DNA of 64,000 nucleotides from Patescibacteria group bacterium (lineage in GTDB: Bacteria; Patescibacteriota; Minisyncoccia; Minisyncoccales; UBA10102): assembly GCA_022563395.1 (NCBI GenBank), contig JADFNM010000001.1, forward strand, positions 178,830-242,829, read 5' to 3'. This document shows positions 17,025 to 39,922 of this stretch, piece by piece (within the stretch, counting starts at the first letter, position 1; every line of letters begins with the position of its first letter). The notes beneath the pieces were generated by a model, which made no database searches, was not told the origin of the DNA, and saw only the letters and a program-made list of their open reading frames with translations. Made by a program: the position numbers and the translations under genes.

Positions 17025-17026
17025 CC

Positions 17027-17635: not shown

Positions 17636-17668
17636 ATCGCCAAATAGGCGGTTTTTTGGTAAGGTAGA
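17636..17668 (+). promoter_or_regulatory. Conserved hairpin-T6-GGTARRRT promoter module (ATCGCCAAATAGGCGGTTTTTTGGTAAGGTAGAGT), 4 nt before the ATG
   Basis: One of at least 9 copies of CGCCnnnnnnGGCGGTTTTTTGGTAGAAT located 5-20 nt upstream of start codons. Confidence 0.6.
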
Positions 17669-17671
17669 GTT

Positions 17672-17860: not shown

Positions 17861-17900
17861 TGAATAGCAGAGTAGGGGAGAAATAATCTATTATCTACCT

Positions 17901-18494
17901 ATGAAGAGGAAAACTAAAAAAAGTACAGAGCTTACTACTAAGGAAGATTTGGGTAGCGACGAGGGATACTTGGAAAGTGAAGCGGTAGTAAAGCCTCCAG
18001 AAAAAGATAGTTTATTAAAGAGAATCCTATCGAGATTAGGCATGGGCGCCTTAGTCGTTGGTGGTGGCGCACTCTTTAGTGTAATTACTATTTTACAATT
18101 TTTAGTTACTGCTATCATTGGTTTAGGAATGATATGGTGGGCAGTAGTCTTATTTTTAGACGGCTCCATTATTTTGGGCCTATTGGTTCTTTTAATCGGG
18201 ACCCCAATAGCTATTGGATTAACCCACTTTTTCTTTTTCTTCTTCCTGGCGATAGGAATCCTTGCAACGATAATATGGGGAGTTGCTAACCTATTTGGTG
18301 TCGGTCTTTCTTTTGGTAATGCCTGGGATATTATTTGGCTGGTTATTGAGGTAGTGCTGCTTGGGGGTATGGCTTTTCTGGGAGTAAGTGGATTGATTGA
18401 AGCGATAAAAGAAAAGAGGGTAGCAGAGTTTTTTAAAGGAAATTGGTTCTATCTTTTACTCTTTGCATTTCTTTTTTGGTTATTTTTTCTCTAA
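17901..18494 (+). CDS. Hypothetical polytopic membrane protein
   Basis: 197 aa with a charged N-terminus followed by about 5 TM helices. Confidence 0.45.
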   Translation: MKRKTKKSTELTTKEDLGSDEGYLESEAVVKPPEKDSLLKRILSRLGMGALVVGGGALFSVITILQFLVTAIIGLGMIWWAVVLFLDGSIILGLLVLLIGTPIAIGLTHFFFFFFLAIGILATIIWGVANLFGVGLSFGNAWDIIWLVIEVVLLGGMAFLGVSGLIEAIKEKRVAEFFKGNWFYLLLFAFLFWLFFL

Positions 18495-18518
18495 GAGAAA
18501 CCAGTAAAACATCATAGT

Positions 18519-18830
18519 ATGGTCAAAAAAATCTATAGAGCAAATAATAGAGATGGCATTCTTATTGTGTTTGAGGATGGAAAACAAGTCGGTTTAACTG
18601 ATATAATGCGTGGTGTCCTACAGAACACATTCCGTACCCAGTTGGAGAATATAAAAATGCACCCTATCCCTCAGGAAGAAGGGGCATTAGAGACGAGACC
18701 TGATGAAGTAACAGAGGTTATACAAAAAGAAACTGGCTATTATTTAGAGGTTTCGGGAGATAAAGGGGATTATGATATTTCCGTTTCTCCTGAGGAGCTT
18801 AAAACTCTAATTTTTCTTGATGATAAATAA
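18519..18830 (+). CDS. Hypothetical protein (103 aa)
   Basis: ORF with plausible coding composition. Paired with the next ORF across a 2-nt gap. Confidence 0.35.
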   Translation: MVKKIYRANNRDGILIVFEDGKQVGLTDIMRGVLQNTFRTQLENIKMHPIPQEEGALETRPDEVTEVIQKETGYYLEVSGDKGDYDISVSPEELKTLIFLDDK

Positions 18831-18832
18831 AT

Positions 18833-19060
18833 ATGTATCTTGATATTGTTCTCGGTTTTTATAATCGTGCTGATGGTGGCTATGCACCGTGGTTTATGAT
18901 TTTTGAGCGTGATGGAGGTAATACCAGGGAGATTCCATTTGATTGCAAAGAGACTGCTCAATCAGAAAAAGAAGCAATACGCATTGCAAAAGCACACGCA
19001 CTAAAGATACTGGAAGAAAGATACTCCTCATCCGTCCAAGTTCGCTTTAGAGAAAAGTAG
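18833..19060 (+). CDS. Hypothetical protein (75 aa)
   Basis: Immediately follows the previous ORF. Acidic small protein. Confidence 0.35.
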   Translation: MYLDIVLGFYNRADGGYAPWFMIFERDGGNTREIPFDCKETAQSEKEAIRIAKAHALKILEERYSSSVQVRFREK

Positions 19061-19112
19061 GGGATTATCGCACAAAACTATATGCAAAGGTGAACTTGCC
19101 ACCCAATAAAAG

Positions 19113-19130
19113 GGTTCTAACTTCGTCCAG
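19113..19130. repeat. GGTTCTAACTTCGTCCAG boundary motif (copy 1; about 34 bp near-identical to the copy at 19815)
   Basis: CAATAAAAGGGTTCTAACTTCGTCCAGTGCCCC at 19100-19135 versus the same sequence with one mismatch at 19802-19840. The two copies flank the P-loop kinase gene as direct repeats. Confidence 0.7.
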
Positions 19131-19218
19131 TGCCCCCGGCTGCTAATTTTAAGCTTAGATTCTAAGCACCCTATCGTGGAGTTAGAACTATGGGTGATTT
19201 TTTGATAAAGTGAACAAT

Positions 19219-19725
19219 ATGAAAAAGAAATTGAGATTCATCTTACTAAACGGGCCAATAGGTTCGGGTAAATCCACTACTGCCAATCTTCTGCAAAGCA
19301 AATTGAAAAGAACTGCTATATTGAGTGTGGAAGACATTAGACAACTTATTTCTGATTTCAAGCACAACAGAGAAGACCATCTCCTTACGTGGAAAATTAT
19401 CCATAGTATGTGTGATGAATATTTCAAAAATGGAATAAGTGTGTTGCTTGAACAGTCCTATTGTTCCAAAGATAATGTTAATCAATTTCTGCGTCTTGCA
19501 AAAAAGCACAAGTGCTCCATAGGTTTCTATCATCTTCAAGCACCAAGAAGTATTTTACTTGAAAGAATTAAGCAACGAAAGAAAGACCATAAGACTTCAA
19601 AAGCTAAAATAATAAGTAATATTAAAAAACACGAAGAAACGACCTACCCAGACGCTATTGTTATTGATACTTCTGAAATGAAACCGGTCGAAGTCGCTAA
19701 GCTTATTTTGAATGATTTAAAGTGA
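19219..19725 (+). CDS. P-loop NTPase/kinase (AAA_33/zeta-toxin-like nucleotide kinase fold); ORF also opens at GTG 19210
   Basis: Walker A LNGPIGSGKST and about 170 aa, kinase-sized. Flanked by direct repeats. Confidence 0.5.
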   Translation: MKKKLRFILLNGPIGSGKSTTANLLQSKLKRTAILSVEDIRQLISDFKHNREDHLLTWKIIHSMCDEYFKNGISVLLEQSYCSKDNVNQFLRLAKKHKCSIGFYHLQAPRSILLERIKQRKKDHKTSKAKIISNIKKHEETTYPDAIVIDTSEMKPVEVAKLILNDLK

Positions 19726-19814
19726 TTGGAGAAATAGTGTAACGTGGGGTGGGGTAATTTGTGTTAAGATGAGCTCAAACTATAGGCAAACCCTGACTTT
19801 CCTTGCAATAAAAG

Positions 19815-19832
19815 GGTTCTAACTTCGTCCAG
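19815..19832. repeat. GGTTCTAACTTCGTCCAG boundary motif (copy 2)
   Basis: Direct repeat of 19113-19130. Followed by the palindrome GCTTAAACGAGATTTAAGC at 19849-19867 and a promoter module. Confidence 0.7.
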
Positions 19833-19883
19833 TACCCCCTGCCATGATTGCTTAAACGAGATTTAAGCAATATGAGAAAAAGA

Positions 19884-19916
19884 ATCGCCATGCAGGCGGT
19901 TTTTTGATAGAGTAGG
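19884..19916 (+). promoter_or_regulatory. Hairpin-T6-promoter module (ATCGCCATGCAGGCGGTTTTTTGATAGAGT)
   Basis: Same module as at 17636. The ATG at 19920 follows 3 nt after GATT. Confidence 0.6.
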
Positions 19917-19919
19917 ATT

Positions 19920-20195
19920 ATGAAAAAGATTCATTTCTTCCTAGACGAATTCCACCACGGGGCTGTGAACCATGTGGTACATTTTACTGGCTTTACGCTC
20001 CTTGGATATGGATTAGGCATAGAGAACTGGTGGATTGTTATCCTCTCTCCTTTTGTCATGGAGATGGGTCATCTTTACAACTACTCTACGGGTAGAGACA
20101 GACACCATGCTATTCGCATCATTCCAATGCAGATAATAGCATGGCTCATCTTTGTAGGAATCGTATACTTACTTACAAGATTGTTTAGTTCATAG
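19920..20195 (+). CDS. Small membrane protein (91 aa)
   Basis: Hydrophobic helices, with His/Glu residues inside predicted helices. Confidence 0.4.
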   Translation: MKKIHFFLDEFHHGAVNHVVHFTGFTLLGYGLGIENWWIVILSPFVMEMGHLYNYSTGRDRHHAIRIIPMQIIAWLIFVGIVYLLTRLFSS

Positions 20196-20238
20196 AAGTT
20201 AAATTTGGAATATAAAACTCATCACTTAGCCTTATCCT

Positions 20239-20269
20239 GGTTCTAACGTCGTTCACGACACGCAGCTAG
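20239..20269. repeat. GGTTCTAACGTCGTTCACGACACGCAGCTAG boundary motif (left flank of the HExxH gene)
   Basis: A 31-bp near-identical direct repeat recurs at 21636-21666, on the other side of ORF 20315-21577. Confidence 0.7.
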
Positions 20270-20314
20270 TTTTAGAGGTTTGACGTGTTTGTGGATGCTT
20301 TGGTAAAATGAAAT

Positions 20315-21577
20315 ATGGAAAATAATTTTTATAGTAAAGGGCAAAGTTTAGTTGGTATAGCTATTATTTCAGTCATTATTAGCTTAATAGTAATAGGTGG
20401 TTTATATTTTTATTTTTCAAAACAAATCCCAGAAGTGTCTAAAATTTCCGAAAAACAAGCCGAAGAAATAATTCAACCAGAAGAGGTTATTCTTCCATCT
20501 GAAGAGTTACCCAAAGAAGAAATTGCTCCAGAGAAGAAAGTTGTAGAAATCTCAATTAAGGCTCCCAAGGAAACGGAGCTAGAAGCCCCCGCACCCCAAT
20601 CACCGCGCAAACCCTTTCCACCAACTGTTAGGATTGAGGCAAATCCAAGCACAGTGCCATCTGGAACACCAGTTACTCTTTCTTGGACTTCTGAAAACGC
20701 AGATTCTTGTATTGCAAAAGACGATTGGTCAGGATCGTTGGAGCTTTCTGGGCAAAGAACAGTTACTCCTCCTAGATCCATATCATACTATCCTGTAGAA
20801 TGCCGGAATCCATTCGGTATCGCATCATATTCTGTAACTATATATGTAGAGTCTATTGCACCTTTACCCTCAGAGGATGCGCCATTAACACCTAAAGAAG
20901 GATTTAGTCTACTTGTTGTCTTCACTTACGAAGATACACCACTAGATTCTCAGATTAAAGAGGACTTATGTACCGGATCTGGCACAAATAAGTTTTCCTA
21001 TCTTCCAAAATGGTTCAAACGTGAAGCAAGCAGATACGGCGTTTCATTCTCAATGACGGTACAATGTCTTGATCAACAAGTTGAACTATCGCAGGATGTT
21101 ATTGAGACAACAAACACCTGTAAGGGTGGTCTCGGAGGTACATTCACTTGTCCATATGACAAAACAAAAGCAAAAAGTTATCTCGAACAAACCATTCCAT
21201 TACTACAGAATTATGATGTTGTGACGATTATGCATTATAAGCCTTATTCTTATGAATTTGGGGCTGATTCAGACGGTTCTGGGGGAAAATATAATTATAT
21301 ATACCTCGCAAAAGGCCCAGTTATCGACGGAGTCCAATATTATAACCCCAATGTAGGAAACGAAGGCAACCATGCTTTTGCTGCTGCACATGAAAGTCTC
21401 CATAATCTAGGAGCATCTGACTACTACTTTCAGGGTTCCGGATACAAATGTTTGATAGAATCTGATCCTACTTTAATTTATAATAGCAGGTATATAATGT
21501 GTGCTGCTGCTAGGGAAGATCCTTTTAGTAGTTATGTAATTTCTCCTGAGACTGCAAAAGAACTTGGATGGAGATAA
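20315..21577 (+). CDS. Membrane-anchored protein with a Pro/Glu-rich linker, an Ig/CARDB-like domain and a C-terminal HExxH (zincin-like) domain
   Basis: N-terminal TM, an EEIAPEKK linker, a PSTVPSGTPVTLSWTSENADSC beta-sandwich-like segment, and AAAHESLHNLGASDYY. Confidence 0.5.
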   Translation: MENNFYSKGQSLVGIAIISVIISLIVIGGLYFYFSKQIPEVSKISEKQAEEIIQPEEVILPSEELPKEEIAPEKKVVEISIKAPKETELEAPAPQSPRKPFPPTVRIEANPSTVPSGTPVTLSWTSENADSCIAKDDWSGSLELSGQRTVTPPRSISYYPVECRNPFGIASYSVTIYVESIAPLPSEDAPLTPKEGFSLLVVFTYEDTPLDSQIKEDLCTGSGTNKFSYLPKWFKREASRYGVSFSMTVQCLDQQVELSQDVIETTNTCKGGLGGTFTCPYDKTKAKSYLEQTIPLLQNYDVVTIMHYKPYSYEFGADSDGSGGKYNYIYLAKGPVIDGVQYYNPNVGNEGNHAFAAAHESLHNLGASDYYFQGSGYKCLIESDPTLIYNSRYIMCAAAREDPFSSYVISPETAKELGWR

Positions 21578-21635
21578 ATTCAAGCTATATTAAGAAGTCG
21601 TATGACGAGAATGTGAGCTCCTCACATACCAAAAG

Positions 21636-21666
21636 GGTTCTAACTTCGTCCACGACACGCAGCTAG
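21636..21666. repeat. GGTTCTAACTTCGTCCACGACACGCAGCTAG boundary motif (right flank)
   Basis: Direct repeat of 20239-20269. Confidence 0.7.
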
Positions 21667-21690
21667 CAGTTCTGAATAGCAAAAATCGCA

Positions 21691-22074
21691 ATGCAAGAAA
21701 ACAAACTAACGATTCAAATTAACAAACCTATTGTAGAGGTTTTTGCTTTTACGACGAATCCGCAAAACACGCCTTTGTGGCTTGACTCAGTAGTTACTGA
21801 ACAAGTGAATGAGTGGCCAGCAAGACAAGGGAGTATTTATAAGAATCAAGATACAGATGGAAACTGGTCAGAGTATGTCGTAAGTGAGTGGAGAGAAAAC
21901 GAAATGTTTGTATGGGACAAAAAGAATAGTAATTACCATGTTAGGTATATCTTTACGCCAGTAGACGAAAATATCACAGAACTTGAATACTATGAATGGG
22001 TAGATACAGGAGAGCTTGATAAACCCTTTACCCAGAAAATACTAGAAAAGCTAAAGCGCGTTTTGGAAAATTAG
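21691..22074 (+). CDS. Hypothetical protein, possibly SRPBCC/START-like fold
   Basis: 127 aa, about the size of a small ligand-binding fold. Weak match only. Confidence 0.3.
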   Translation: MQENKLTIQINKPIVEVFAFTTNPQNTPLWLDSVVTEQVNEWPARQGSIYKNQDTDGNWSEYVVSEWRENEMFVWDKKNSNYHVRYIFTPVDENITELEYYEWVDTGELDKPFTQKILEKLKRVLEN

Positions 22075-22240
22075 TTCTAAATGAGACACGAGATACTACG
22101 CCTATCCAGTGTCTCATTTGTCTCATTTTGTGCTAAAATGACCCCGACCGAGACGGGTAGATGAGACACCCCTAGAAAGCCCCAGAATCCCTCTTAAACC
22201 TCATGTTCCAGACCAAGGGTGCTAAAGCCAAACATAAAAC

Positions 22241-22810
22241 ATGATATCTCACCCATCTATCAAGGCCATCTTTATACCAGGAAATGATGGCGGTACAACG
22301 CAGGACCAGTGGTTTCCGTATGCCAAACGTGAACTTAAAAAGCTTGGTCTTGCAGTAAGGGCAGAAACTTTTCCTGACCCCATTCTTGCAAGGGAACAAT
22401 ACTGGATCCCTTTCTTGAAAGAGCTTGGCGCTGACGAGAAGACCATCCTTATAGGACATTCATCGGGAGCAGTCGCTGCAATGAGATTTGCAGAGCAGAA
22501 CAAAATTCTGGGATCGGTGTTGATTGGGGCCTGCTACACTGACCTTAATGACGAGATGGAAAAGAAAAGCGGGTATTACGACCGCCCCTGGGATTGGGAG
22601 GCAATCAAAGCGAATCAAGAGTGGATTATCCAATATGCCTCTATTGACGATCCATACATTCCTGTTGAGGAAGCTCGGCATATCCATACACAACTTGGTA
22701 CAGAATATTACGAGTATAAAGACCAGGGACACTTTGGAGAACCCACAAGGCCTAAACCAGAGTTTCCAGAGATGATAGAGGCAATCAGAAAAAAGCTATC
22801 CCAGGACTAA
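22241..22810 (+). CDS. Alpha/beta hydrolase, RBBP9/YdeN-like serine hydrolase
   Basis: 189 aa with nucleophile-elbow GHSSG (ILIGHSSGAVAA) and downstream Asp/His residues. Confidence 0.6.
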   Translation: MISHPSIKAIFIPGNDGGTTQDQWFPYAKRELKKLGLAVRAETFPDPILAREQYWIPFLKELGADEKTILIGHSSGAVAAMRFAEQNKILGSVLIGACYTDLNDEMEKKSGYYDRPWDWEAIKANQEWIIQYASIDDPYIPVEEARHIHTQLGTEYYEYKDQGHFGEPTRPKPEFPEMIEAIRKKLSQD

Positions 22811-22920
22811 GATTCTCTGCACCAGCATTCACGCAACGGGACATTCGTCTCTGAGAGACTCAGTCTCGATGAGTTCTAACATCGTCCAAGCCCCGCAGCA
22901 TACTAATACAAGAAGCCAAT

Positions 22921-22990
22921 GGTTCCTAAATGAAATTAAGGATTCTTTAATTTCATTTAGGAGATATGCGCTCTAAATAAGGGGGACAAA
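22921..22990. repeat. Type-B palindromic element (GGTTCCTAAATGAAATTAAGGA...TTAATTTCATTTAGGAGATATGCGCTCTAAATAAGGGGGACAAA)
   Basis: Family recurs at 9545, 31388, 33579, 39471 and 44907. The 30 bp upstream (CTAATACAAGAAGCCAATGGTTCC) also matches the copy at 44888. Confidence 0.8.
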
Positions 22991-23108
22991 ACTTGTGTAA
23001 ATCGGATGTGCACAACAAGGATTTTGAGAATATCATTAACTTTTTAGGCAAATGATTTATAATAAAGATGATAGATAAAAATGAACAGGATGATAACAAC
23101 TTAGAAAA

Positions 23109-24422
23109 ATGAGAGCAAAAATCCCCTTTATCTTCATTGTTGTTTCCCTTATGTTTGTCAGCATGTTTGTCGGCGCTTTTTTAGTCGGAGAGGTTAAGGC
23201 GCAGACAAAAGATTCCCAAGAGCTGTCAAAGGTTTTAGTGATTGACATTGAAGGAGAGATTCGCGCCGGCACGGTTCAGTTTGTAAAGCGCGCTTTGACA
23301 AAGGCCCAAGCTGGCGACTTTGAACTTTTTCTTATTCAACTGAACACCCCAGGTGGGCTCTTAAAGGCCACCGAAGAGATCAGCCGGCTTTTGCTGGACA
23401 GCAAAATACAAACCGCCGTGTTTGTTCATAAAAACGGCGGCTGGGCATTTTCGGCCGGCACTTTTATTCTTCTGTCTGCAGAAATTGCAGTTAGCCATCC
23501 CAATGCCTCAATTGGTGCGGCTCAGCCGCGCGCTTTGGGTATTGGGGAAGTCGCGGAGCCTGATGAAAAAATTATTAAAGCCTCAAGCATTTGGATGAAA
23601 TCATTAGCTGAAGCTCGCGGACGAAACCTCGAGGTCGCGGAAAAATTCGTCCTGGAAAATCTAACATTAAGCGGTAAAGAGGCACACGAACAAAATATTA
23701 TTAATTTCACCGCCGTATCTTTGGATGAACTTCTCAACAAGCTTAAATTTAAAGACGCCGCCATAGAAGAAGTAACGCCAAATCTCTTAGAGCAAATCCT
23801 GTCTTTTCTTTCCATTTCTTTTCTAATTCCGCTTTTACTTGGCATTGGGTCTTTAGGGTTGTTCTTTGTATTTCGCACAGGCGAGGTGGAAATTGGAATT
23901 TTCGCTATCGCTGCTCTTCTTTTAGGACTGTGGGGAATGGGGGCTATCAATCTTTCGGTGCTGGGAGCAACGCTTTTGTTCTTTGGTATTGCTCTTATTA
24001 TTCTTGAAATTTTTGTGATGCCCGGATTTGGTGTTTTTGGCATAGCTGGAACCATCGCCTTTCTTTTTGGGATACTCACCTTTGCCCAAGAGCCGTTCTT
24101 ACCAAGCGTTTTTACCAATGCAGCTTTTTGGTTTGTGATGGGGGTGACGTTGGCTGTTTCTGTGTTTTTCATTGTTCTTGGCAGATTGTCGCTTAAAACC
24201 CTAAGGGTAAAGGCCAGGGCTGGTCCGGAGGCTCTCACGGGAGAAACAGCTGTTGTAACCGAAACACTGCATCCCTACGGCAAGGTAAAGATTAACCGTG
24301 AGGACTGGGTGGCAAAAAATATTTCAGATAAAGAAGTTATTGAAGTGGGAGAGAAGGTAAGGGTTGTAAATATCCAGGGAAATACTATAATAGTAAAAGG
24401 GTCGAAAACTAGCATGCTGTAA
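23109..24422 (+). CDS. NfeD-family membrane-bound serine protease (ClpP-class)
   Basis: Signal/TM segment, ClpP-like domain LNTPGG...GWAFSAGTFILLSAE, TM segments, and a C-terminal OB-like beta domain. Confidence 0.75.
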   Translation: MRAKIPFIFIVVSLMFVSMFVGAFLVGEVKAQTKDSQELSKVLVIDIEGEIRAGTVQFVKRALTKAQAGDFELFLIQLNTPGGLLKATEEISRLLLDSKIQTAVFVHKNGGWAFSAGTFILLSAEIAVSHPNASIGAAQPRALGIGEVAEPDEKIIKASSIWMKSLAEARGRNLEVAEKFVLENLTLSGKEAHEQNIINFTAVSLDELLNKLKFKDAAIEEVTPNLLEQILSFLSISFLIPLLLGIGSLGLFFVFRTGEVEIGIFAIAALLLGLWGMGAINLSVLGATLLFFGIALIILEIFVMPGFGVFGIAGTIAFLFGILTFAQEPFLPSVFTNAAFWFVMGVTLAVSVFFIVLGRLSLKTLRVKARAGPEALTGETAVVTETLHPYGKVKINREDWVAKNISDKEVIEVGEKVRVVNIQGNTIIVKGSKTSML

Positions 24423-24437
24423 AAACTTGTAAATATT

Positions 24438-25205
24438 ATGGAATTTTTGTTTAATTTATTTTTCTCAACTGGAGGAATTATTGTTATCGTCGCCATCATT
24501 CTTTTCTCAGCTGTAAAGATTGTCAGGGAATATGAGCGGGCAGTTATTTTTCGCTTGGGACGCTTGGTGGGCACGCGTGGACCCGGTCTTTTTCTGCTTA
24601 TCCCAATGATTGAAAAAATGGTCAAGCTTGATCTTCGGATTATTACCCTTGATGTGCCGGCCCAAGAGGTTATCACCCGCGACAACATACCCATAACGGT
24701 TGACGCGGTGCTGTATTTTAAGGTTTCTGACCCTATTCGTGCAGTGGTTGAGGTTGAAAACTTTCTGAAAGCAACTTCGCAAATCGCCCAGACATCGCTT
24801 AGGGGAGTTGCCGGCGAGGCGGCTTTTGACGAGATTCTGGCCGAGCGTGAGAAGATTAACACCAAGCTTCACAAAATTATTGACATTGCCACGGACCCTT
24901 GGGGAATTAAAGTCTCGGCGGTGGAAATAAAGCACGTTGAGGTGCCAGAAGCCATGCAGCGGGCAATTGCCAAACAGGCGGAAGCTGAGCGGACAAGACG
25001 GGCAAAAGTAATTTTGGCCGAGGGAGAATTTCAGGCGGCTCAAAAACTAAAGGATGCCGGTGAAATTCTCGGCGCCAACCCAATTGTGTTTCGCTATCTT
25101 GAAACCATAGCAGAAGCGGCTAAAGAAAAAAGCAATACCATCATCTTCCCGGCCGAGATGCTTGACTTGGTCAAAAAAATCTCCCGAAAATCGGACATGC
25201 AGTGA
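24438..25205 (+). CDS. SPFH/band-7 protein (stomatin-like), cognate partner of NfeD
   Basis: N-terminal TM, band-7 core (VPAQEVITRDNIPITVDAVLYFKV), and a coiled-coil C-terminus. Classic nfeD-stomatin operon. Confidence 0.8.
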   Translation: MEFLFNLFFSTGGIIVIVAIILFSAVKIVREYERAVIFRLGRLVGTRGPGLFLLIPMIEKMVKLDLRIITLDVPAQEVITRDNIPITVDAVLYFKVSDPIRAVVEVENFLKATSQIAQTSLRGVAGEAAFDEILAEREKINTKLHKIIDIATDPWGIKVSAVEIKHVEVPEAMQRAIAKQAEAERTRRAKVILAEGEFQAAQKLKDAGEILGANPIVFRYLETIAEAAKEKSNTIIFPAEMLDLVKKISRKSDMQ

Positions 25206-25457
25206 AAAACCACTTGAAAAATTAAGTGGCAGAGAAAAATAGAACTTGCTGGTCCTCTTTAGAGACACTACCCCTATCTAGTGTTTCATTTGTCTCATTC
25301 TGCCTTATTTCTTCTTGGTTGAAAGTGCCCCGTCCCCGTCAGAATTAGTTTCTTTAGTAGCCCCAATTTCCCCTTAAAATTCCGAGGGGATAAGGTGCAA
25401 GACTCGCCTAGAGAGCATTAGTGCTTAAACGAGATTTAAGCAAACTCATAATCTAAT

Positions 25458-26033
25458 ATGCACACAGGAGTTCCATTACCATCAAATCCTATGGAAGAAT
25501 TAGAACAAAACAAAAACCTCGCCGAGGCAGCACAGCTTACCAAGCAAGAGCGGAAACAGTTAAAGAAACAGCGTAAGCGAGAAGAGCGTCAACAGGGACG
25601 CAGTCAAGAGAAAATGAAAAAGATAATTACTATTGCTGTAATTATCTTGGTTGTGGGGGGAGGAATCTTTGCTCTGGGCTGGTTTTTCTCAACCGGCCCG
25701 AGCCTGCCGCCAACCTCACAGCTAAATCATTCTGAACTATCGCCGCCAGCTCATATTGTCACAAGTCCTATCCCAGCAGCCATCCAGAAGCATATGCTTG
25801 AACACGCCGATGGAGGAGGCAAGCCCGGGGTTATTATTCAATACAATTGCGAAGATTTTGCATGTGAGCAGGATCTGGTAGACAACTTAACTGAGCTCGT
25901 AAAGCGGTATCCAGCCAACGTATACCTTGCTCCAAATAATTATGACGGAAAGATTATCTTAACCAAGCTTGGCAGGCGACAAATCTTAGAGGAGTTTAAC
26001 CAACGAACAATAGAGGACTTTATTGGACGATAA
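25458..26033 (+). CDS. Membrane-anchored hypothetical protein with HxxEH and CEDFAC motifs
   Basis: Charged N-terminus, one TM helix, then an extracytoplasmic domain containing HMLEHADGGG and YNCEDFACE. Confidence 0.4.
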   Translation: MHTGVPLPSNPMEELEQNKNLAEAAQLTKQERKQLKKQRKREERQQGRSQEKMKKIITIAVIILVVGGGIFALGWFFSTGPSLPPTSQLNHSELSPPAHIVTSPIPAAIQKHMLEHADGGGKPGVIIQYNCEDFACEQDLVDNLTELVKRYPANVYLAPNNYDGKIILTKLGRRQILEEFNQRTIEDFIGR

Positions 26034-26087
26034 ACAGCCTGCAGGGTCGTGCAGGTAAGTTGCATATACGTTAAGGTGAAGTAACAT

Positions 26088-26816
26088 ATGAACAAAACCA
26101 TAATAATCATTATTATTGCTTTAGGAGCAGTTGTCGGGGCATACTTCCTCTTTCAGGGAGGGGATGGGGTTCCACAGGAATCTGGTACGCAAACTCCTGC
26201 GTCGCAAAACCAAGAGCGGATTATATCCATTCGCAACCATCAGATTACAGAACCCACGCTTGTTATCTCAGTTGGTGACACGGTGACCTGGAGAAACCAG
26301 GATAATCTTGCGGGATTCCCGTATGATAATCACTCGCCAACGAGCGGCACGATTGATTCTACGGGCGCTCAGGGCCAAAGAGGCGTGGTTCCCAACAGCG
26401 GAAGCGGCATAGCCGATGGTACGTTTGAGCTTGCTCTGGGTTCTGGTGAGTCACAAAGCTTCACCTTTACTGAAGCTGGCACCTATACTTACTATATCGC
26501 AGAACACCCTTTAGTGAGCGGCGAGGGAAAGATTATTGTGGAGGAAAAGAAGGTACCAGTAAGCATGAGTGCTCGCAGTTTTGCCTTTAGCCCCGAAACG
26601 CTCAAAGCAAGGGTTGGGGAAAGTATAGTGCTTGAGGTGCAGGCAACCGGACAACATACCTTCACCATTGATGAATTGGGCGTGAATGTTTCCCTGCCGC
26701 ATGGCAAAACAACGAGAGTGGAATTTACGCCGTCTCAAACAGGAACCTTCACTTACTACTGCGCCGTTCCCGGCCATCGTAATGCGGGGCAAATCGGCAC
26801 TCTAACGGTCGAATAA
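26088..26816 (+). CDS. Secreted tandem cupredoxin-like protein
   Basis: Signal peptide and two repeats ending in GTYTYYIAEHP and GTFTYYCAVPGHRNAGQ. Only the second keeps the Cys/His copper-ligand positions. Confidence 0.5.
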   Translation: MNKTIIIIIIALGAVVGAYFLFQGGDGVPQESGTQTPASQNQERIISIRNHQITEPTLVISVGDTVTWRNQDNLAGFPYDNHSPTSGTIDSTGAQGQRGVVPNSGSGIADGTFELALGSGESQSFTFTEAGTYTYYIAEHPLVSGEGKIIVEEKKVPVSMSARSFAFSPETLKARVGESIVLEVQATGQHTFTIDELGVNVSLPHGKTTRVEFTPSQTGTFTYYCAVPGHRNAGQIGTLTVE

Positions 26817-26845
26817 CTTATAACTAATAACTCATCACAAACACT

Positions 26846-27058
26846 ATGAAATGGTCACCAATTTTACACGGAGTTGCCGCAGTTTCCGGAGTCGTTGGCT
26901 TTTTGGTCTTAGTCATGTGGTGGATAGTTCTTTTGAGGGAAGGCGCATCGCCTTTTTCGGCAGAACATTTGTATGACGACGCAATAGCTTTACTTTTGCT
27001 CTCAATCGCGTTTGGCATAGGCACTCTTATCCACCAAAAACAGGAGCGACAGCAATAA
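26846..27058 (+). CDS. Small membrane protein (70 aa)
   Basis: Two hydrophobic helices. Confidence 0.35.
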   Translation: MKWSPILHGVAAVSGVVGFLVLVMWWIVLLREGASPFSAEHLYDDAIALLLLSIAFGIGTLIHQKQERQQ

Positions 27059-27064
27059 TACCGT

Positions 27065-28474
27065 ATGTTTTTTCGACCCGTTCTGGGTGTTTTTCTGGTT
27101 TTTGGTCTTCTCGTCCTTGGGGGCTGGTTTGTACTGCAAAAAAAGGGTAACGTTAAAACCCCAGCCGTGGACGATATTCAAGAGAAAGTTCAGGTTGCAG
27201 CCAGCTACTCTTTTTTTGTAACAGTTGACGGGATAGGACTCAATGTTGATGTGGCAGATACGCCAGAGAAAAAGGCCCAAGGGCTTTCTGGAAGAATTGG
27301 CATGGGAGAAGACGAGGGCATGCTGTTTGTGTATGATGCGCCGGGGCTTTATACTTTTTGGATGAAGGATATGCTATTTTCCATTGATATTATTTGGATC
27401 AATGAAAATTACGAAATTGTTGATATCGCAAAAAATGCTTTGCCTGATTCATTTCTTCAGACTTTTCAACCACAAAAACCAGCGCAGTATGTGTTGGAGG
27501 TAAATGCGGGCTTTTCCGATAGAAATAATATCCAAATCGGCAGTAGAGTAGATTTTTCAGAAATTTTTATTGGTAGTAAATTTAAAGAACTTGTTTTTGT
27601 TGTAGATGCCAAAAACGATGAGGTTATTGTTCTAACCAAAGAAGGTGGAATCATAAAACGAATCAAAGTTGATCATAGTCCGCACGATATTGCTCTCTCG
27701 CCCAATAGCAAGTTTATCGTTACGGCTAATTTTCACAGCAATACCATAAACATCATTGATGTTCAGAGTTTATCTTTACAAAAAACCATCGCAACTGGCG
27801 ATGGGGCCCATGGCGTAGTATTCAGCCCGGATGGCAGGTTTCTTTTCGTTGTAAACGCAAGAGAAGACACGCTTTCCATTATTGAAACCGCAACCTTTAC
27901 CCAACAAACTAAGATCAATGTAGGAAGTTATCCAGAATATGTGGGTGTTACCAAAGATGGCTCCAAAGTTTTTACCACCAATCTTAGTGATGGGGGATCA
28001 ATAACCGTATTGCAGAACATTGGCTTTGAATCAAAAGTAATAAAGGAAATATCTTCTGATGTTGATCCTCACGGCTGGGCAATTTCGCCAGATGGCTCAA
28101 AAGTCATTATTACCACGCTGGGCAGTAACTCTGCTTATCTTTATGATAGCAGCACCTTTGAAGAAATAAGCCACTTTGATATTGGTGCGCCCTCAGAGTT
28201 TGCCGCTTTCCGCACGAACAACGAAGTGTGGGTTACCAATATTGGAGCTAATTACATTTCTATTATTGAGATTACGCAGAATACAATTCTTGACCAAATT
28301 GCGGTTGGAGAAACCCCTCACGGCATTTCTTTTTCATCAGACAAAACGCTTGCATTTGTTCCTTTATATCAACCAGGTGAAGTTGTTATAATTGACACGG
28401 TAGAACGAAAAGTAATCAAAAAAGTAAAAGTTGGCGAAGAACTTCATAATGCAGTGGTAGTAAAATCGAGGTAA
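27065..28474 (+). CDS. Secreted DUF192 domain fused to a YVTN-type beta-propeller
   Basis: DUF192-like FVYDAPGLYTFWMKDMLFSIDIIWIN, then repeated 40-residue blades (DIALSPNSKFIVTAN, VVFSPDGRFLFVVN, WAISPDGSKVIITT). Confidence 0.6.
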   Translation: MFFRPVLGVFLVFGLLVLGGWFVLQKKGNVKTPAVDDIQEKVQVAASYSFFVTVDGIGLNVDVADTPEKKAQGLSGRIGMGEDEGMLFVYDAPGLYTFWMKDMLFSIDIIWINENYEIVDIAKNALPDSFLQTFQPQKPAQYVLEVNAGFSDRNNIQIGSRVDFSEIFIGSKFKELVFVVDAKNDEVIVLTKEGGIIKRIKVDHSPHDIALSPNSKFIVTANFHSNTINIIDVQSLSLQKTIATGDGAHGVVFSPDGRFLFVVNAREDTLSIIETATFTQQTKINVGSYPEYVGVTKDGSKVFTTNLSDGGSITVLQNIGFESKVIKEISSDVDPHGWAISPDGSKVIITTLGSNSAYLYDSSTFEEISHFDIGAPSEFAAFRTNNEVWVTNIGANYISIIEITQNTILDQIAVGETPHGISFSSDKTLAFVPLYQPGEVVIIDTVERKVIKKVKVGEELHNAVVVKSR

Positions 28475-28704
28475 CAGCGCTACAATTTAAAGGCGCAGGC
28501 AGGAGATATGCGCCTCTAGGCAAGGAGAGAACAAAACTTGGGGCGGGTCGTCTTAGCGGAGAATCCGGCCCGTGGCCCTACTATTTACACGTACTGTTTT
28601 GTGCTATTATATCAATGTAGAACGATTTGAGATTTAGCAGGCTGTAATAGTAAATAAAAGGTTGAACTGCCTGCTAAGATTGAGTAACTACCACTTAGAA
28701 ATAT

Positions 28705-36526: not shown

Positions 36527-37738
36527 ATGTTTTCCTTGCTGAAGAATAAAAAGATTTTAGCTTGGACTTTCTATGATTTTGCCGATACTGCCCTGGCAGC
36601 TCTTTTCTTTACCTTTTTCTGGCCCTTGCTTATCAAAGAACATTTGGGAGGAAATGAATTCCAGATTGGCCTTGTTATGGGTCTTTCGCTTCTTTTCGTA
36701 GCGCTCTTTGTGCCTTTGATAGGAGCAATATCTGACGCCACTGGCAGACGCATGCCAATTCTTATTATATCTACTTTGCTGACCGCTATTTTTGCAGTTC
36801 TTACCGGATACATGGGTTTAGTTGGAGCTTTAATTCTGGGGTTTCTGGTACGGTTTTTGTTCACCGTTGATATTGATCTCTACGACGCTAAACTGGTTGA
36901 TATTGTTGCGCGTTCCAAAATCGGCTTTGTATCCGGCCTGGGAGTTGCCATTGGATATCTTGGCACAATAGTTGGCCTGGCCGTAGCCTATCCATTGCTG
37001 GAGTATTTTGGCTGGGACACGTTGCTTGGCATTCAAGTGATTTTTATTGAAGGGGCGCTCTTTCTGCTTATTTTCTCTCTTCCTCTTTTCTTGTTGGTTA
37101 AAGATAAACCCCTCAAAGAAAAAATACCCTTTCTGTCTGCTTTTCGCAAAGGTCTTAAAGCACTGAAGTTTACCATTACCAACCTTAAACAATTCCCGGC
37201 CTTTGGCAGGTTCCTGCTTGCTTCTTTTATCTACAACGATGCGGTAAATACCACGCTTATATTTTTAGTGCTGTATGCCACAAGCGTTATTGGCCTTCAA
37301 ATCAAGGAGTTTTTCTTTGTTTTTGTCCTTATGGCTTTGGGAGCTGGAGTTGGAGCACTCATATTTGGGTATCTTTCAGGCAGCTTTAGTCCCAAACGAG
37401 CCCTAATCATTGCTCTTGGAATGTGGATTTTTGTCATTGTTTATCTCCTTTTAATCAAAACCTTTGCCAGCATACTTATTGCCGGAATTATAGGAGGGGC
37501 GGCACTTGGAGGCATCTGGACCGCGAATCGGCATATGGTAGTTCTAATCTCGCCATATCGGAAAATAGCTGAGTTTTTTGGCATTGAAGGGTTAACCGAA
37601 CGCCTCTCCGGGGTCTTGGGACCTATTATTTTTGGCGCAATTGTTGTCACGATTGGATACCAAGTTGCTCTTTTCTTTATCCTCTTTTTGTTCATTGCAG
37701 GCCTTGCTCTTCTTTTGAGAGTGCCGCTAAAAACTTGA
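36527..37738 (+). CDS. MFS-type transporter
   Basis: 12 predicted TM helices, a GAISDATGRR loop motif, and duplicated 6-TM halves. Confidence 0.6.
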   Translation: MFSLLKNKKILAWTFYDFADTALAALFFTFFWPLLIKEHLGGNEFQIGLVMGLSLLFVALFVPLIGAISDATGRRMPILIISTLLTAIFAVLTGYMGLVGALILGFLVRFLFTVDIDLYDAKLVDIVARSKIGFVSGLGVAIGYLGTIVGLAVAYPLLEYFGWDTLLGIQVIFIEGALFLLIFSLPLFLLVKDKPLKEKIPFLSAFRKGLKALKFTITNLKQFPAFGRFLLASFIYNDAVNTTLIFLVLYATSVIGLQIKEFFFVFVLMALGAGVGALIFGYLSGSFSPKRALIIALGMWIFVIVYLLLIKTFASILIAGIIGGAALGGIWTANRHMVVLISPYRKIAEFFGIEGLTERLSGVLGPIIFGAIVVTIGYQVALFFILFLFIAGLALLLRVPLKT

Positions 37739-37860
37739 TTAAATTAAAATGGACATATCTCAATTTGTATCTCTTTTCCATCGTGTTGAGAAAAGATATT
37801 GGCAATTGTTCCCATGAGAGCTATACTATTGGTATGCGCTACAGCGTGAAGGGAACAAAT

Positions 37861-38286
37861 ATGGAACTCACTCCGGAGGTCTCCACGTATATTGAGGAGA
37901 AGATAGGAAGCTTGGATAGGTTTATTAAGCATGTGGATTCTGCAGTGCAAGGATGGGTAGAAGTTGGGCGCATTGGCAAGCATCATCAAACAGGAAAGGT
38001 CTGGAGAGCAGAAGTTCAAATTCATCTGCCAGGCAGGTCAATGAGATCGGAAGCTGTGGCCAAAACCATTTTCCTGGCTATCAATGAAGTGAAAGACAAA
38101 TTGCAACGGGAACTCAAACAATATAAAAGGAAACAAGCCACTAAACAGAAAAAGGGGGCTCGCAGCTTTAAACCGCCTTTCCCTTTGAGAAAACCTCCCC
38201 GTCTCAAGGGAAAGGTTCAGAATGTTGGGATTAAACCAATTCGCAAGAAACCTCGTACTCATATGCCACCAGAAGCCCCTAAATAA
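37861..38286 (+). CDS. hpf: Ribosome hibernation promoting factor / RaiA family (ORF opens at 37735)
   Basis: MELTPEVSTYIEEKIGSLDRF...VEVGRIGKHHQTGKVWRAEVQIHLPG. Basic C-terminal extension. Confidence 0.7.
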   Translation: MELTPEVSTYIEEKIGSLDRFIKHVDSAVQGWVEVGRIGKHHQTGKVWRAEVQIHLPGRSMRSEAVAKTIFLAINEVKDKLQRELKQYKRKQATKQKKGARSFKPPFPLRKPPRLKGKVQNVGIKPIRKKPRTHMPPEAPK

Positions 38287-38317
38287 GGGGCTTTTTGGTT
38301 GCATGGGGAGTGGAGTT

Positions 38318-38348
38318 CAAACTTTTGTTGGTTTTTTGGTAGAATGAG
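38318..38348 (+). promoter_or_regulatory. T6-GGTAGAAT promoter module 3 nt before the ATG at 38352
   Basis: GTTGGTTTTTTGGTAGAATGAGAATATG. Confidence 0.5.
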
Positions 38349-38351
38349 AAT

Positions 38352-38705
38352 ATGAATCCAATAGCATTCGCAGTTCTAGCAGCACCAGCTTTTGGTTTGT
38401 GGACCGTATTCCATAAGCTCGCCGCTCCGTATATCAACCAAGTGTTTGGAGCAATTCTTGTGTCGTTCACTGCTGTCATCTTAGGCAGTATTGTTCTGCT
38501 GCCTAGGATAAAAGACGTCCAACTCTTTAGTGACCCGAAAGGAATAATCTTCCTTGTTCTTGCAGGACTAATGGCCTTTGGAATTGATTTCTTTGCACTT
38601 CAGGCATATTCAAAGGGATTACCTCTCACTGTCGGTGGACCTATCATTATCGGAGGAAGTATCGCCGTCGCCGTTAGTATTGGCTTTGTATTAGGAATTT
38701 TTTAA
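38352..38705 (+). CDS. Small 4-TM membrane protein
   Basis: 117 aa, entirely hydrophobic helices. Confidence 0.4.
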   Translation: MNPIAFAVLAAPAFGLWTVFHKLAAPYINQVFGAILVSFTAVILGSIVLLPRIKDVQLFSDPKGIIFLVLAGLMAFGIDFFALQAYSKGLPLTVGGPIIIGGSIAVAVSIGFVLGIF

Positions 38706-38767
38706 AATATCTGCTAGACTATTAATATTCAAGGTCGGCTAATACTTCATTTACTAATATTTATTCC

Positions 38768-38998
38768 ATGAAAAAAACTACATGCAAGACTATGGGTGGC
38801 GTTTGTGACGAGGAGATCCGTGGGGAAACTGCTGAAGAATTGATGGCCAACGGTAAGCAGCACCTTCATGATGCGGCTGAGACCGGCGACGAAGATCACA
38901 AAGGTGTCATTCAAAAAATGGAACAGATGAGCGAAGAAGATCGCAAAAAGTGGGCTGGAGAACTTACGAATAACTTTGATGCACTGGAAGAGGCTTAA
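38768..38998 (+). CDS. DUF1059-like small metal-binding protein
   Basis: 76 aa with MKKTTCKTMGGVCDEE...HLHDAAETGDEDH, a Cys/His pattern typical of DUF1059. Confidence 0.4.
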   Translation: MKKTTCKTMGGVCDEEIRGETAEELMANGKQHLHDAAETGDEDHKGVIQKMEQMSEEDRKKWAGELTNNFDALEEA

Positions 38999-39108
38999 AG
39001 TTAGATCCCGATAGGTAGGAGGGTGTGATCTCTTATTATACTAACCAATCAATCGCCAAACAGGCGGTTTTTTGGTAGAGTAAGGATGGCGAATTTCAGA
39101 GGAGAGAA

Positions 39109-39339
39109 GTGAACGACAAGCACCCAAGAACAGGGGAGAGGCATATGTATATGTACTGGATGCTCAGGATAGCACCCGTAGTGACGATTCTCGTTGTTAT
39201 CAACCTCCTTGTGTGGCGGTTCACCGAATTTAAGGTGATCTTCGGCCCCGGGCTCTCTGGGGTTCTCCTGATTGCCTCTGTGGGTCTGTGGTTTATTGCC
39301 CTCTATGCTTCACGAAATGCTCGATATCGAGCAAGATGA
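39109..39339 (+). CDS. Small 2-TM membrane protein (ORF opens at GTG; an internal ATG at about 39145 is likely)
   Basis: Hydrophobic ORF downstream of the promoter module at 39046-39080. Confidence 0.3.
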   Translation: MNDKHPRTGERHMYMYWMLRIAPVVTILVVINLLVWRFTEFKVIFGPGLSGVLLIASVGLWFIALYASRNARYRAR

Positions 39340-39402
39340 GGGTTCATACCATGATAGGGCGGTGAGATGATATCAATACCCGCTTTTCTTTTACACAAAA
39401 CA

Positions 39403-39420
39403 GGTTCTAACATCGTCCCA
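39403..39420. repeat. GGTTCTAACATCGTCCCA boundary motif copy
   Basis: Matches the consensus GGTTCTAAC[AT]TCGTCC. Followed by palindromic elements. Confidence 0.6.
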
Positions 39421-39440
39421 TAGGGAGAGCCATTGTTGCT

Positions 39441-39545
39441 TAAACGAGATTTAAGCAATATCCATTGAAGTTAATGGTTCCTTAATTTCATTTAGGAGAT
39501 AATCACTAGAATCAATCATGCTTAAACGAGATTTAAGCAGCATGG
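39441..39545. repeat. Composite of three palindromic elements (type A, type B, type A)
   Basis: GCTTAAACGAGATTTAAGC ... GGTTCCTTAATTTCATTTAGGAGATAATC ... GCTTAAACGAGATTTAAGC. Confidence 0.8.
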
Positions 39546-39552
39546 GGAAAAA

Positions 39553-39588
39553 GAATCGCCAGTACGGCGATTTTTTGGTAGAATCAAA
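39553..39588 (+). promoter_or_regulatory. Hairpin-T6-GGTAGAAT promoter module before acpS
   Basis: ATCGCCAGTACGGCGATTTTTTGGTAGAATCAAAT, then ATG. Confidence 0.6.
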
Positions 39589-39589
39589 T

Positions 39590-39922
39590 ATGATTATGAA
39601 ACTCGGGACTGATATCGTACATATTCCAAGATTTGAAAAGACATTGAGAGAAAGTCGGGAATACTTTGAACAGAATGTGTTCTGCCCCGAAGAATGGGCA
39701 GATTCATCAATAGAGAAATTAGCTGGAAGATTTGCAGCAAAGGAAGCAACACTCAAGGCCTTGGGTATTAAAGCTGGCCGCTGGCAAGAAATTTGCGTCA
39801 AAAATTCAGAAGATGGAAAACCGTTCCTTGCTTCCTTCCTAATGCAGAAAAAATGGAAACATGAACTTTCCATTTCTCACGACGGTGAATACGCAATTGC
39901 TGTCGTAGTATTCTATCGGTGA
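39590..39922 (+). CDS. acpS: Holo-[acyl-carrier-protein] synthase (ORF opens at 39518 inside the repeat)
   Basis: MIMKLGTDIVHIPRF...FAAKEATLKALG...ISHDGEYAIAVVV, the 4'-phosphopantetheinyl transferase signature. Confidence 0.8.
   Translation: MIMKLGTDIVHIPRFEKTLRESREYFEQNVFCPEEWADSSIEKLAGRFAAKEATLKALGIKAGRWQEICVKNSEDGKPFLASFLMQKKWKHELSISHDGEYAIAVVVFYR

Follow-up and report, generated by a model that had tools for sequence, protein, structure and literature searches.

Among known systems, the locus described here comes closest to the tycheposon model, in which islands are built at tRNA genes. Tycheposons occupy flexible genomic islands at tRNA genes in Prochlorococcus, 910 of 937 such elements have tyrosine recombinases, and newcomers push older elements inward so that partial tRNAs, fragmented integrases and cargo remain (bioRxiv 10.1101/2020.12.28.424599). 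We analysed a stretch of 64,000 nucleotides (the window) from a Patescibacteria group bacterium (assembly GCA_022563395.1, contig JADFNM010000001.1, positions 178,830–242,829), in which a 16-base motif, GGTTCTAACNTCGTCC, recurs within a variable island downstream of a tRNA-Gln gene. Our reading, to which we give a probability of about 0.7, is that this array consists of ends left by elements that were moved by large serine recombinases (LSRs) and inserted serially at tRNA-Gln, and that these ends mark the borders of acquired cassettes. Patescibacteria, the candidate phyla radiation (CPR), have tiny genomes for which few mechanisms of gene gain have been described, and the data point to a phylum-wide LSR family that targets tRNA gene ends and apparently builds compact islands of small cassettes. 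The 16-mer together with its tRNA-like core is a simple mark that could delimit acquired CPR genes and pair recombinases with their natural attP and attB sites.

Motif copies and the variable island at tRNA-Gln

The window contains seven copies of the motif where 0.04 are expected, together with one weak copy. Using the pattern GGTTCTAACWTCGTCC with up to two mismatches, the seven matches (the motif positions of junctions 1 to 7 in Table 1) are all on the + strand with none on the other, and none of 100 shuffled windows (mean 0.04 matches) attains seven. A preliminary description of this DNA had claimed at least eight copies; seven are borne out, and the eighth, GTTCTAACATTCTTCC at 32356–32371, is weak (nhmmer E = 0.15). 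The 8-mer at the motif core, GTTCTAAC, occurs 14 times in the window compared to 1.7 expected. All of the copies are intergenic, lying 12–90 nt past the stop codon of a + strand gene, and every gene between 15.1 and 39.3 kb is on the + strand. Two pairs of copies that had been described as flanking a P-loop kinase gene and an HExxH protein gene are confirmed: those at 19101 and 19803 are near-identical over about 35 nt, with likeness extending for about 70–90 nt, and those at 20239 and 21636 are 94% identical across 31 nt. The motif spacings of 702, 424, 1397 and 1236 nt hold one, one, one and two genes, respectively, and the earlier picture of cassette ends is functionally apt. Each copy is followed by a core composed of an acceptor-strand-like stretch, a discriminator base, and then CCA or CTA. 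The reported likeness to a tRNA 3′ end is real for the 11–14 nt after the motif (e.g. ...CCCCGCAG|CA) but does not extend to the 16-mer as a decayed local T-arm. A reading of the motif as a T-arm or minihelix was also considered and rejected, as inspection revealed no stem partners and no acceptor 5′ strand upstream.

The window has the gene content of a Patescibacteria chromosome (mraW, a PBP gene, dnaB, recR, cysS and dnaX), and the anchor formed by dnaX and tRNA-Gln is also present in five of the loci fetched for comparison (L112, L128, L130, L132 and L133). Relatives with 72–85% DnaX identity share the order ...recR-dnaB-cysS-dnaX-tRNA-Gln-[X]-pcm-FKBP-(SIMPL)-efp-fmt-...-murC, where X is a variable stretch, the only one out of synteny, that spans 28 kb in the window (16.7–44.9 kb) and 2.4–4.6 kb in the relatives. 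Only one of the 35 island open reading frames (ORFs) has a close homologue in the islands of the relatives (34589–35455, 86% identity with L128), one further ORF has a distant 27% match in L112, and GC content falls to 0.37–0.39 at 16–22 kb. The region is thus a tRNA-linked island, being adjacent to the tRNA and in the same orientation, with conserved flanks and with content that varies between relatives. An 84-aa ORF with a GIY-YIG nuclease domain lies between dnaX and tRNA-Gln (16344–16598), with a counterpart in L130 (35% identical) and none in L128 or L132; it is possibly an endonuclease of the homing type, located at the anchor of the island.

A profile of the motif plus its tail gives window matches only at 19.1–39.4 kb and none in the core flanks, the top match being junction 7 (E = 1.3e-9). 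Likewise, the matches in L112, L128, L130, L132 and L133 are on the + strand and within X only, never in the approximately 20 kb of core flanks. The genome does hold several intergenic repeat families, such that a genome-wide repeat of the repetitive extragenic palindrome (REP) or terminator type with no link to variable gene content might be suspected. However, hairpin repeat families are spread over the core and the motif is not, and because the profile matches only the island and the equivalent variable region of five relatives, a generic REP or terminator, which the preliminary description had named as the finding that would overturn it, is not what was found; we regard this explanation as the least probable of all. 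What that description proposed in its place, that the copies are relics of att sites, is upheld, in that they are tied to the tRNA-Gln gene and delimit individual genes or small gene groups within accessory DNA whose content differs between relatives.

Recombinase tails, tRNA ends and the motif in other genomes

Read on the minus strand, the motif translates as D-[D/E]-V-R-T with its variable base N at a wobble position, and is followed by about 20 conserved codons (e.g. ...LLLQGKSxFAYS... or ...KIMENEECIYIPDL...). There is no consistent start codon ahead of this tail because the upstream codons are the antisense of the tRNA-like tail (W/L-L-R...). The source of such a peptide is indicated by L130 and L131, where a minus-strand ORF of 235 and 243 aa, respectively, adjoins tRNA-Gln, matches the recombinase zinc-ribbon domain (PF13408, E = 5.8e-8), and ends in codons K-L-L-R-D-stop that are the antisense of the tRNA 3′ end; these loci contain only a truncated LSR. 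Two kinds of C-terminus occur among 120 homologues of this ORF. An antisense-tRNA peptide (...R-[D/E]-x-DSN[L/P/Q]...), the integrated form, is present in 38, a further 14 end just after LLR, and 21 have the form ...IYSQNPxLLR-VL-DDVRT-xILQGKSxxF...*, which we refer to as the attP form. The LSR homologues carry PF00239, PF07508 and PF13408. In L087 the attP-form tail is contiguous in the DNA with the motif itself, and L170 has the attP-form arrangement with a diverged TTCGAAC-type arm, where an ORF with a Resolvase domain is followed by a zinc-ribbon ORF with the site in its 3′ end. Because the motif or arm is contiguous with an LSR ORF, the recombinase gene contains the attachment site within its 3′ end, and the motif is the arm that lies beyond the crossover.

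On the minus strand, each of the seven window copies has a match to the LSR tails, the best of these being the matches of the P0135 tail to junction 1 at 19136–19077 (E = 1.9e-5) and to junction 2 at 68% identity over 22 aa (E = 2e-6). By comparison, the motif is LSR tail-coding DNA adjoining a tRNA-like core, and the 16-mer is a conserved element-borne arm found across Patescibacteria. The loci also show LSR genes that abut tRNA genes and whose 3′ ends run into the end of the tRNA. A second word, GGTTAGAACC, is located inside the LSR gene 63–75 nt on the other side of the core; apparently 74 homologues read it as RLEP and 11 as KVRT, and the use of one word for two peptides suggests constraint on the DNA word rather than on the peptide. 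The upstream block TCTGGAATATAAATA was considered as a promoter, but the LSR tail peptide ...YIYIPDL accounts for it better. The DDVRT word in LSR tails may extend beyond Patescibacteria, as the same 16-mer encodes ...GGLDDVRTPQG... within a full-length-looking LSR of about 546 open codons in Caulobacter ginsengisoli (L032, 5100–6591), which has 40% identity to P0237.

Conservation in a minus-strand frame could also arise if the unit were an independent antisense gene or RNA (a peptide of 20–35 aa starting near GTG-GAC-GAN-GTT-AGA-ACC), or a 3′ untranslated region or terminator, unrelated to recombination. In the D-D-V-R-T frame, the few differences between the units of the window, L128 and L130 tend more towards synonymous changes, but only three sequences are compared and a second minus-strand frame is possible; for junction 2 compared to L128 and L130, the LSR-tail frame does at least as well as this alternative. 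Some copies have GTG or ATG directly before D-D-V-R-T, and upstream genes have their stop codons immediately before the unit; both points favour this reading. However, the start codon is inconsistent (CTG, TGG, ACG, CGG and others), an in-frame stop is often present four to five codons upstream, the motif takes part in no stable structure, and no Rfam family matches it; Rfam searches of the whole window at the gathering threshold and of 18950–23100 at E ≤ 1 returned two tRNAs and one chance match only. Moreover, in 21 homologues this peptide continues an LSR ORF, so that the codon pattern is explained by descent. We consider an independent gene or untranslated element improbable.

A scan of 596 Gb of genome sequence with the 16-mer identified at least 120 loci, where chance alone is expected to give about 1100 matches (our own estimate, for 15 specified bases). 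Among the matches listed, 64 are intergenic and share an extension, and these come mostly from metagenome-assembled genomes of Patescibacteria. The extended pattern is GGTTCTAAC-N-TCGTCC, 3 nt, a 7-nt stretch resembling an acceptor-stem 3′ strand, a discriminator base (G), and CCA or CTA. Where a tRNA gene in the same orientation is present upstream, the tail agrees with its 3′ end: the tail is of the tRNA-Ser type (CTCTCCGCCA) in L034 and L071, the latter also sharing the flank GAATCAC, of the tRNA-Asn type in L042 and L069, and of the tRNA-Gln type in L051, L054, L112 and the window. The L112 locus, from Saccharibacteria, is laid out similarly to the window, with dnaX and tRNA-Gln followed over 6.8 kb by five motif copies, each of which is preceded by one to four predicted ORFs. 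By inspection, what separates tRNA and motif in L071 and L034 is cargo only, with no recognisable integrase. Comparison of these loci links the motif to tRNAs, situates it in a variable island and marks it as the distal end of inserts; arrays at tRNA-Gln occur in several lineages, within a hypervariable slot.

The bare 16-mer also occurs by chance in Marinobacter 23S rRNA, in rfbB-type dehydratases (GFIGSNFV) and in C5-cytosine methyltransferases (PIWDDVRTFDG...GGFPCQDIS), and scans therefore need the tRNA-like tail for specificity. Chance-match loci comprise the viral contigs L139, L149, L150, L161, L164 and L165, together with L047, L057, L094, L107, L010, L067, L104 and L113. Almost all of the 33 matches in viral contigs are of this kind, in C5-methyltransferase genes or other ORFs; L142 and L146 alone look like members of the motif family, and both matches are near contig ends.

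Ordinary tyrosine-integrase islands or prophages, inserted serially at tRNA-Gln, would leave degraded copies of the tRNA T-loop and acceptor, and the motif does align loosely with GGTTCGAATCCTAGTCC. The exact 17-nt 3′ end of tRNA-Gln has two matches in the window with none expected, such that a 14.3-kb segment (16677–30985) has tRNA-Gln at one end and an exact copy of its 3′ end (30986–31002) at the other. The breakpoint of this fragment is in the T-loop, a classical signature of a tDNA fragment and unlike the motif-type junctions within the segment. However, the 16-mer does not change with the targeted tRNA (Gln, Asn or Ser) and hence is not derived from the local tRNA; it runs into about 20 codons homologous to LSR tails; and the recombinase genes abutting tRNAs are of the serine type. 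No tyrosine integrase is present in the examined ORF sets of the window, L034, L071, L130 and L112; for the window, Pfam scans covered 60 ORFs, including every island ORF of at least 70 aa, and gave no Phage_integrase domain. A tyrosine-type tRNA island may account for the 17-nt fragment, but not for the conserved 16-mer or its recombinase-tail context, and we regard it as an unlikely source of the array.

Junction architecture and proposed assembly of the array

The most readily interpreted junctions are those of L051, from Parcubacteria. The tRNA-Gln end (...CCCGCAG|) is followed by a 68-nt flank with a terminator hairpin, GGACGTTAGAAC, a T-run and TGGTAGAAT, then by a gene, AGTTCTAATGTCGTCCACGATTCCCAG|, an identical 68-nt flank, two genes, GGTTCTAACATCGTCCACGACTCCCAG|, and a different flank. 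The recurrence of the flank sets the breakpoint right after the discriminator base (...CAG|), and the successive junctions are B-O-P′, P-O-P′ and P-O-B′. The window has the same pattern in a more decayed form. The sequence after junction 1 (19147–19207) is 77% identical to that after the displaced tRNA-Gln fragment (31010–31070), and in each of them an inverted motif-like arm precedes a T-run and a −10-like box; the architecture of 31003–31080 agrees with the tRNA-Gln flanks of L128, L132 and L051. The inverted motif-like word GGACGTTAGAAC with TTTTT is found in L128 (about 11170–11181), L132 (about 11247–11258) and L051 (249–260 and 996–1007). Its distance to the point where the T-loop word of tRNA-Gln begins is 81–82 nt in these three loci and, for the equivalent word, 72–76 nt in the window, a difference of about 10 nt that suggests helical phasing; the sequence between the two words in L051 is unrelated to that in L128 and L132. 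The P and P′ arms share weak symmetry, and the motif word is about 5 nt farther from the core than the T-loop word is in the tRNA. A shift of about 5 nt is a recognised difference between attP and attB half-sites.

Co-oriented single-gene cassettes, together with a motif and an inverted GTTAGAAC some 60–70 nt apart (19113–19188), are what would be expected of a true integron-like array, with the motif forming the R″/L″ half of attC hairpins and an IntI-type integrase encoded elsewhere; the motif also resembles the left end of the aadA1 attC. The pairing of motif and inverted word noted in the preliminary description is present at 19181, but the left partner of the inverted word at 31044 is not a motif and is instead the exact 17-nt copy of the tRNA-Gln 3′ end (30986–31002). 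The inverted partner accompanies only two of eight copies, and an inverted motif near a direct one is rare in the loci fetched. The proposed attC-like hairpins did not survive folding, as DNA folds of both strands of 19108–19195 and 30985–31056 are no better than shuffles (z = −0.44, −0.77, +0.57 and +0.23), and a strong fold at 19810–19905 is two unrelated hairpins. The 60 ORFs include no IntI or tyrosine recombinase, cassettes appear to bring their own terminator and promoter-like modules, and LSR coding sequence accounts for the motif. An integron in the strict sense is therefore very improbable, and the earlier integron/attC suggestion fails. The composite in which about 60 nt separate a motif from an inverted word recurs (L051; window 19113–19188), as a junction between the right arm of one cassette and the left module of the next. 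A metagenome scan with the inverted-word module GTGGAGTTAGAACTATGGG gave two unrelated matches.

Returning to serial LSR insertion, which the sequence comparisons make well supported, we propose the following scheme. A family of Patescibacteria LSRs would insert elements at the 3′ ends of tRNA genes, and the motif would be the arm contributed by the element, namely the P arm of attP. The attP would lie within the last 30 or so codons of the recombinase gene, antisense to the tRNA, in the order ...IYSQNPxLLR (left arm and acceptor-like core), then V-L-D-D-V-R-T-x-I... to the stop codon (right arm, the motif). Insertion beside the discriminator base (...CAG|) would split this arrangement, leaving the recombinase body beside the tRNA, and the motif, the tRNA-like core and the last 20 or so tail codons at the far end. 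Repeated insertions at tRNA-Gln with loss of recombinase genes could then generate the array in the window. Each cassette would open with a left module, in which a terminator or hairpin and a promoter are joined in some cases by an inverted motif-like word, and would continue with one or a few + strand genes, the recombinase-tail relic, the motif and the tRNA-like core. We infer an LSR as the maker of the window junctions, repeated use of the tRNA-side junction, and later loss of the recombinase gene.

Several observations weigh against this scheme. First, the window has no LSR gene or fragment detectable by tblastn or by the Pfam scans of the 60 ORFs, and most of the LSR homologues recovered lack a catalytic Resolvase domain. 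Secondly, textbook serine-integrase sites are about 50 bp long, dyad-symmetric about a central dinucleotide, and have little identity between attP and attB, and here there is an identity block of 11–18 nt with weak dyad symmetry. The arm in L170 is without the shift of about 5 nt, and the 73 junctions compared show no enrichment of an inverted TTAGAAC/TTCGAAC word at a constant spacing beyond the core. Thirdly, we know of no serine integrase that reuses attL, so tandem build-up needs an extra assumption, and the T-loop breakpoint at 30986 possibly fits a different recombination event of the tyrosine type. Lastly, cassette content differs between species but does not vary among the strains available: exact-protein look-ups returned only contigs 99.6–100% identical with cassette order unchanged, giving no evidence of current mobility. 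The kinase protein is not on record in the exact-protein look-up. We note that three independent metagenome contigs (L121–L123) all stop about 130 bp into the gene at 18519, the end of L121 corresponding to window position 18649, and that L126 and L127 begin at 16554, just ahead of tRNA-Gln. These look like assembly breakpoints, and may reflect population heterogeneity hidden in the retrieved contigs.

A more tentative extension of serial LSR insertion, which we consider less likely than not, is that the island is a serine-recombinase counterpart of an integron, with the tRNA 3′ end as a fixed capture site, cassettes without recombinases moved in trans, and a switch in the form of the recombinase tail. 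Each cassette of one to a few genes would have a complete site (motif arm, tRNA-like core and left module), and LSRs encoded elsewhere would insert, excise or exchange cassettes in trans, because insertions regenerate a usable tRNA site and a full P-O-P′ between cassettes, as in L051. The C-terminal tail of the LSR would change form on integration and excision, and this could set directionality. Current mobility and capture in trans are parts of this extension that we infer.

Table 1. Coordinates of features in the window; cassette limits are measured core to core.
Feature	Position	Strand	Details
tRNA-Gln(UUG)	16603–16676	+	ARAGORN, Rfam; island anchor, attB-like left half; array downstream, same orientation
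Variable island	16677–44940		between tRNA-Gln and pcm; synteny
Junction 1	19065–19142	+	motif 19113–19128; core end ...GGCTG|CTA; minus-strand LSR C-terminal tail relic QPGAL|DEVRTLLLGGKFTFAYSFVR*
Kinase cassette left (P′-like) module	19143–19209	+	hairpin, inverted motif-like arm 19167–19188, T-run, TGATAAAGT −10-like box
Junction 2	19764–19841	+	motif 19815–19830; core ...CCCCCTG|CCA; LSR-tail relic ...WQGVL|DEVRTLLLQGKSGFAYSLSSS*
Junction 3	20185–20265	+	motif 20239–20254; core ACGACACGCAG|CTA; tail relic LRVV|NDVRTRIRLSDEFYIPNLTSMN*
Junction 4	21585–21662	+	motif 21636–21651; core as junction 3; tail relic LRVV|DEVRTLLVCEELTFSSYDFLI*
Junction 5	22860–22898	+	motif AGTTCTAACATCGTCC 22872–22887; core AAGCCCCGCAG|CA, nearest to tRNA-Gln acceptor end
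Displaced tRNA-Gln 3′ end	30986–31002	+	AATCCTAGTCCCGCAGC, exact 17 nt
DUF2007 cassette left module	31003–31080	+	CTCGAACC word, inverted motif-like arm 31031–31051, T-run, TGGTAGAAT
Junction 6	31279–31341	+	diverged motif GGTTCTAACTTCATTC 31315–31330; core AACAGGCAGAG|CCA; tail relic LL|NEVRTCSVDLLLLKTF*; profile E = 0.02
Weak decayed copy	32356–32371	+	GGTTCTAACATTCTTC; profile E = 0.15
Third inverted-word and promoter module, variant	38310–38345	+	GTGGAGTTCAAAC...TTTTTTGGTAGAAT; 83% identity
Junction 7, most distal	39391–39429	+	motif 39403–39418; core CATAGGGAGAG|CCA; tail relic W|DDVRTCFV*
pcm, conserved	44941–45546	minus	
Cassette	16674–19142		six ORFs
Cassette	19143–19841		P-loop kinase
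Cassette	19842–20265		91-aa ORF, no Pfam match
Cassette	20266–21662		420-aa protein
Cassette	21663–22898		SRPBCC protein and serine hydrolase
Cassette	22899–31001		8.1 kb, tRNA fragment at its end
Cassette	31002–31341		DUF2007 protein
Two larger segments	ends about 32371 and 39429		
GCTTAAACGAGATTTAAGC/CCTAAATCTCGTTTAGG hairpins	10575–10633, 11233–11308, 14028–14057, 19843–19881, 25416–25454, 29938–29973, 39431–39469, 39513–39551, 47765–47835, 51429–51499, 57435–57505		

The cassettes are co-oriented and often contain one ORF, with TTTTTTGGTAGAAT-type modules ahead of many genes. Taken together, these features define a cassette by its left module, by the gene or genes that it encloses, and by the recombinase-tail relic, motif and tRNA-like core that close it.

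Other repeats accompany the genes. A G+C hairpin, TCGCCnnnnGGCG, followed by TTTTTTGGTAGART, is present at 17631–17675, 19879–19923, 29968–30012, 31445–31489, 39047–39091 and 39550–39594; it reads as a putative intrinsic terminator joined to an extended −10 promoter immediately ahead of start codons, and was not scored by simple promoter and terminator scans. A second module, AATGGTTCCTWAAYGAAATTAAGGATTCYTTAATTTCATTTAGGAGATATGCG (22912–22990, 31379–31457, 33570–33648 and 39466–39501, with partial copies at 9540–9562 and 44904–44926), has a near-perfect hairpin of about 15 bp ending in a Shine-Dalgarno-like AGGAG and ATG; it is located upstream of several genes and directly after three motif junctions, and could be a leader or regulatory hairpin. 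The hairpin family GCTTAAACGAGATTTAAGC/CCTAAATCTCGTTTAGG, some members of which are back-to-back palindromes, is found in intergenic regions of both core and island, and looks REP-like or terminator-like and distinct from the motif. Tandem repeats with a 39-nt period, rich in CCNCCN, span 51829–52193 and overlap ORFs at 51736–52436; on one strand they may encode a Gly/Ala-rich repeat protein.

Comparison with known systems

The window resembles tycheposon islands in being tRNA-adjacent, in its probable repeated site-specific insertions, and in the displaced tRNA 3′ fragment at 30986–31002. Tycheposons have tyrosine recombinases, whereas the recombinase relatives here are LSRs. In tycheposons the boundary marks are partial tRNAs, whereas here they consist of a conserved element-borne arm that doubles as the C-terminal coding sequence of the recombinase. 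The host also differs, being a member of the Patescibacteria, and there is no element with an intact integrase in the window.

As in large serine integrase systems such as phiC31, Bxb1 and A118/LI, attP here adjoins the integrase gene and crossover is confined to a short core. The domain set of these enzymes (Resolvase, recombinase domain, zinc ribbon and coiled coil) is seen in L170 and the homologues, but not in the window. Unlike the known large serine integrases, the target here is the 3′ end of a tRNA gene, the identity block is 11–18 nt, and junctions occur in arrays; the sites also seem longer, with a second word 50–75 nt from the core. The Islander authors stated that serine integrases had not been seen to target tRNA gene ends.

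The similarity to integron arrays is in the co-oriented single-gene cassettes each ending in a recombination site, and in the fixed anchor (tRNA-Gln compared to attI); as with attC, each L051 junction regenerates a full site (P-O-P′). Unlike integrons, there is no IntI among the 60 window ORFs and no folded attC, the site comes from the end of a serine-recombinase gene, and the cassettes seem to bring promoter-like and terminator modules. If cassettes do move in trans, this would be an integron-like capture system on an unrelated enzyme.

There are precedents for an attP within a gene, namely the archaeal SSV1 integrase, which is split into intN and intC, and integration-dependent immunity in mycobacteriophages. 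An attachment site inside the coding sequence of an element means that integrated and excised forms encode proteins with different ends, and with attP inside the 3′ end of the recombinase gene it is the enzyme that differs between integrated and free states, a possible directionality switch. The SSV1 enzyme is a tyrosine integrase and the split mycobacteriophage gene is that of the repressor; here, by contrast, a serine recombinase would have its own C-terminal tail exchanged for residues encoded antisense to a tRNA. We found no description of such a system in CPR in the literature. Thus, although tRNA-linked islands are themselves known, a tRNA-anchored cassette island marked by the split-off C-terminal end and attP arm of an LSR family that is widespread in Patescibacteria appears to be new.

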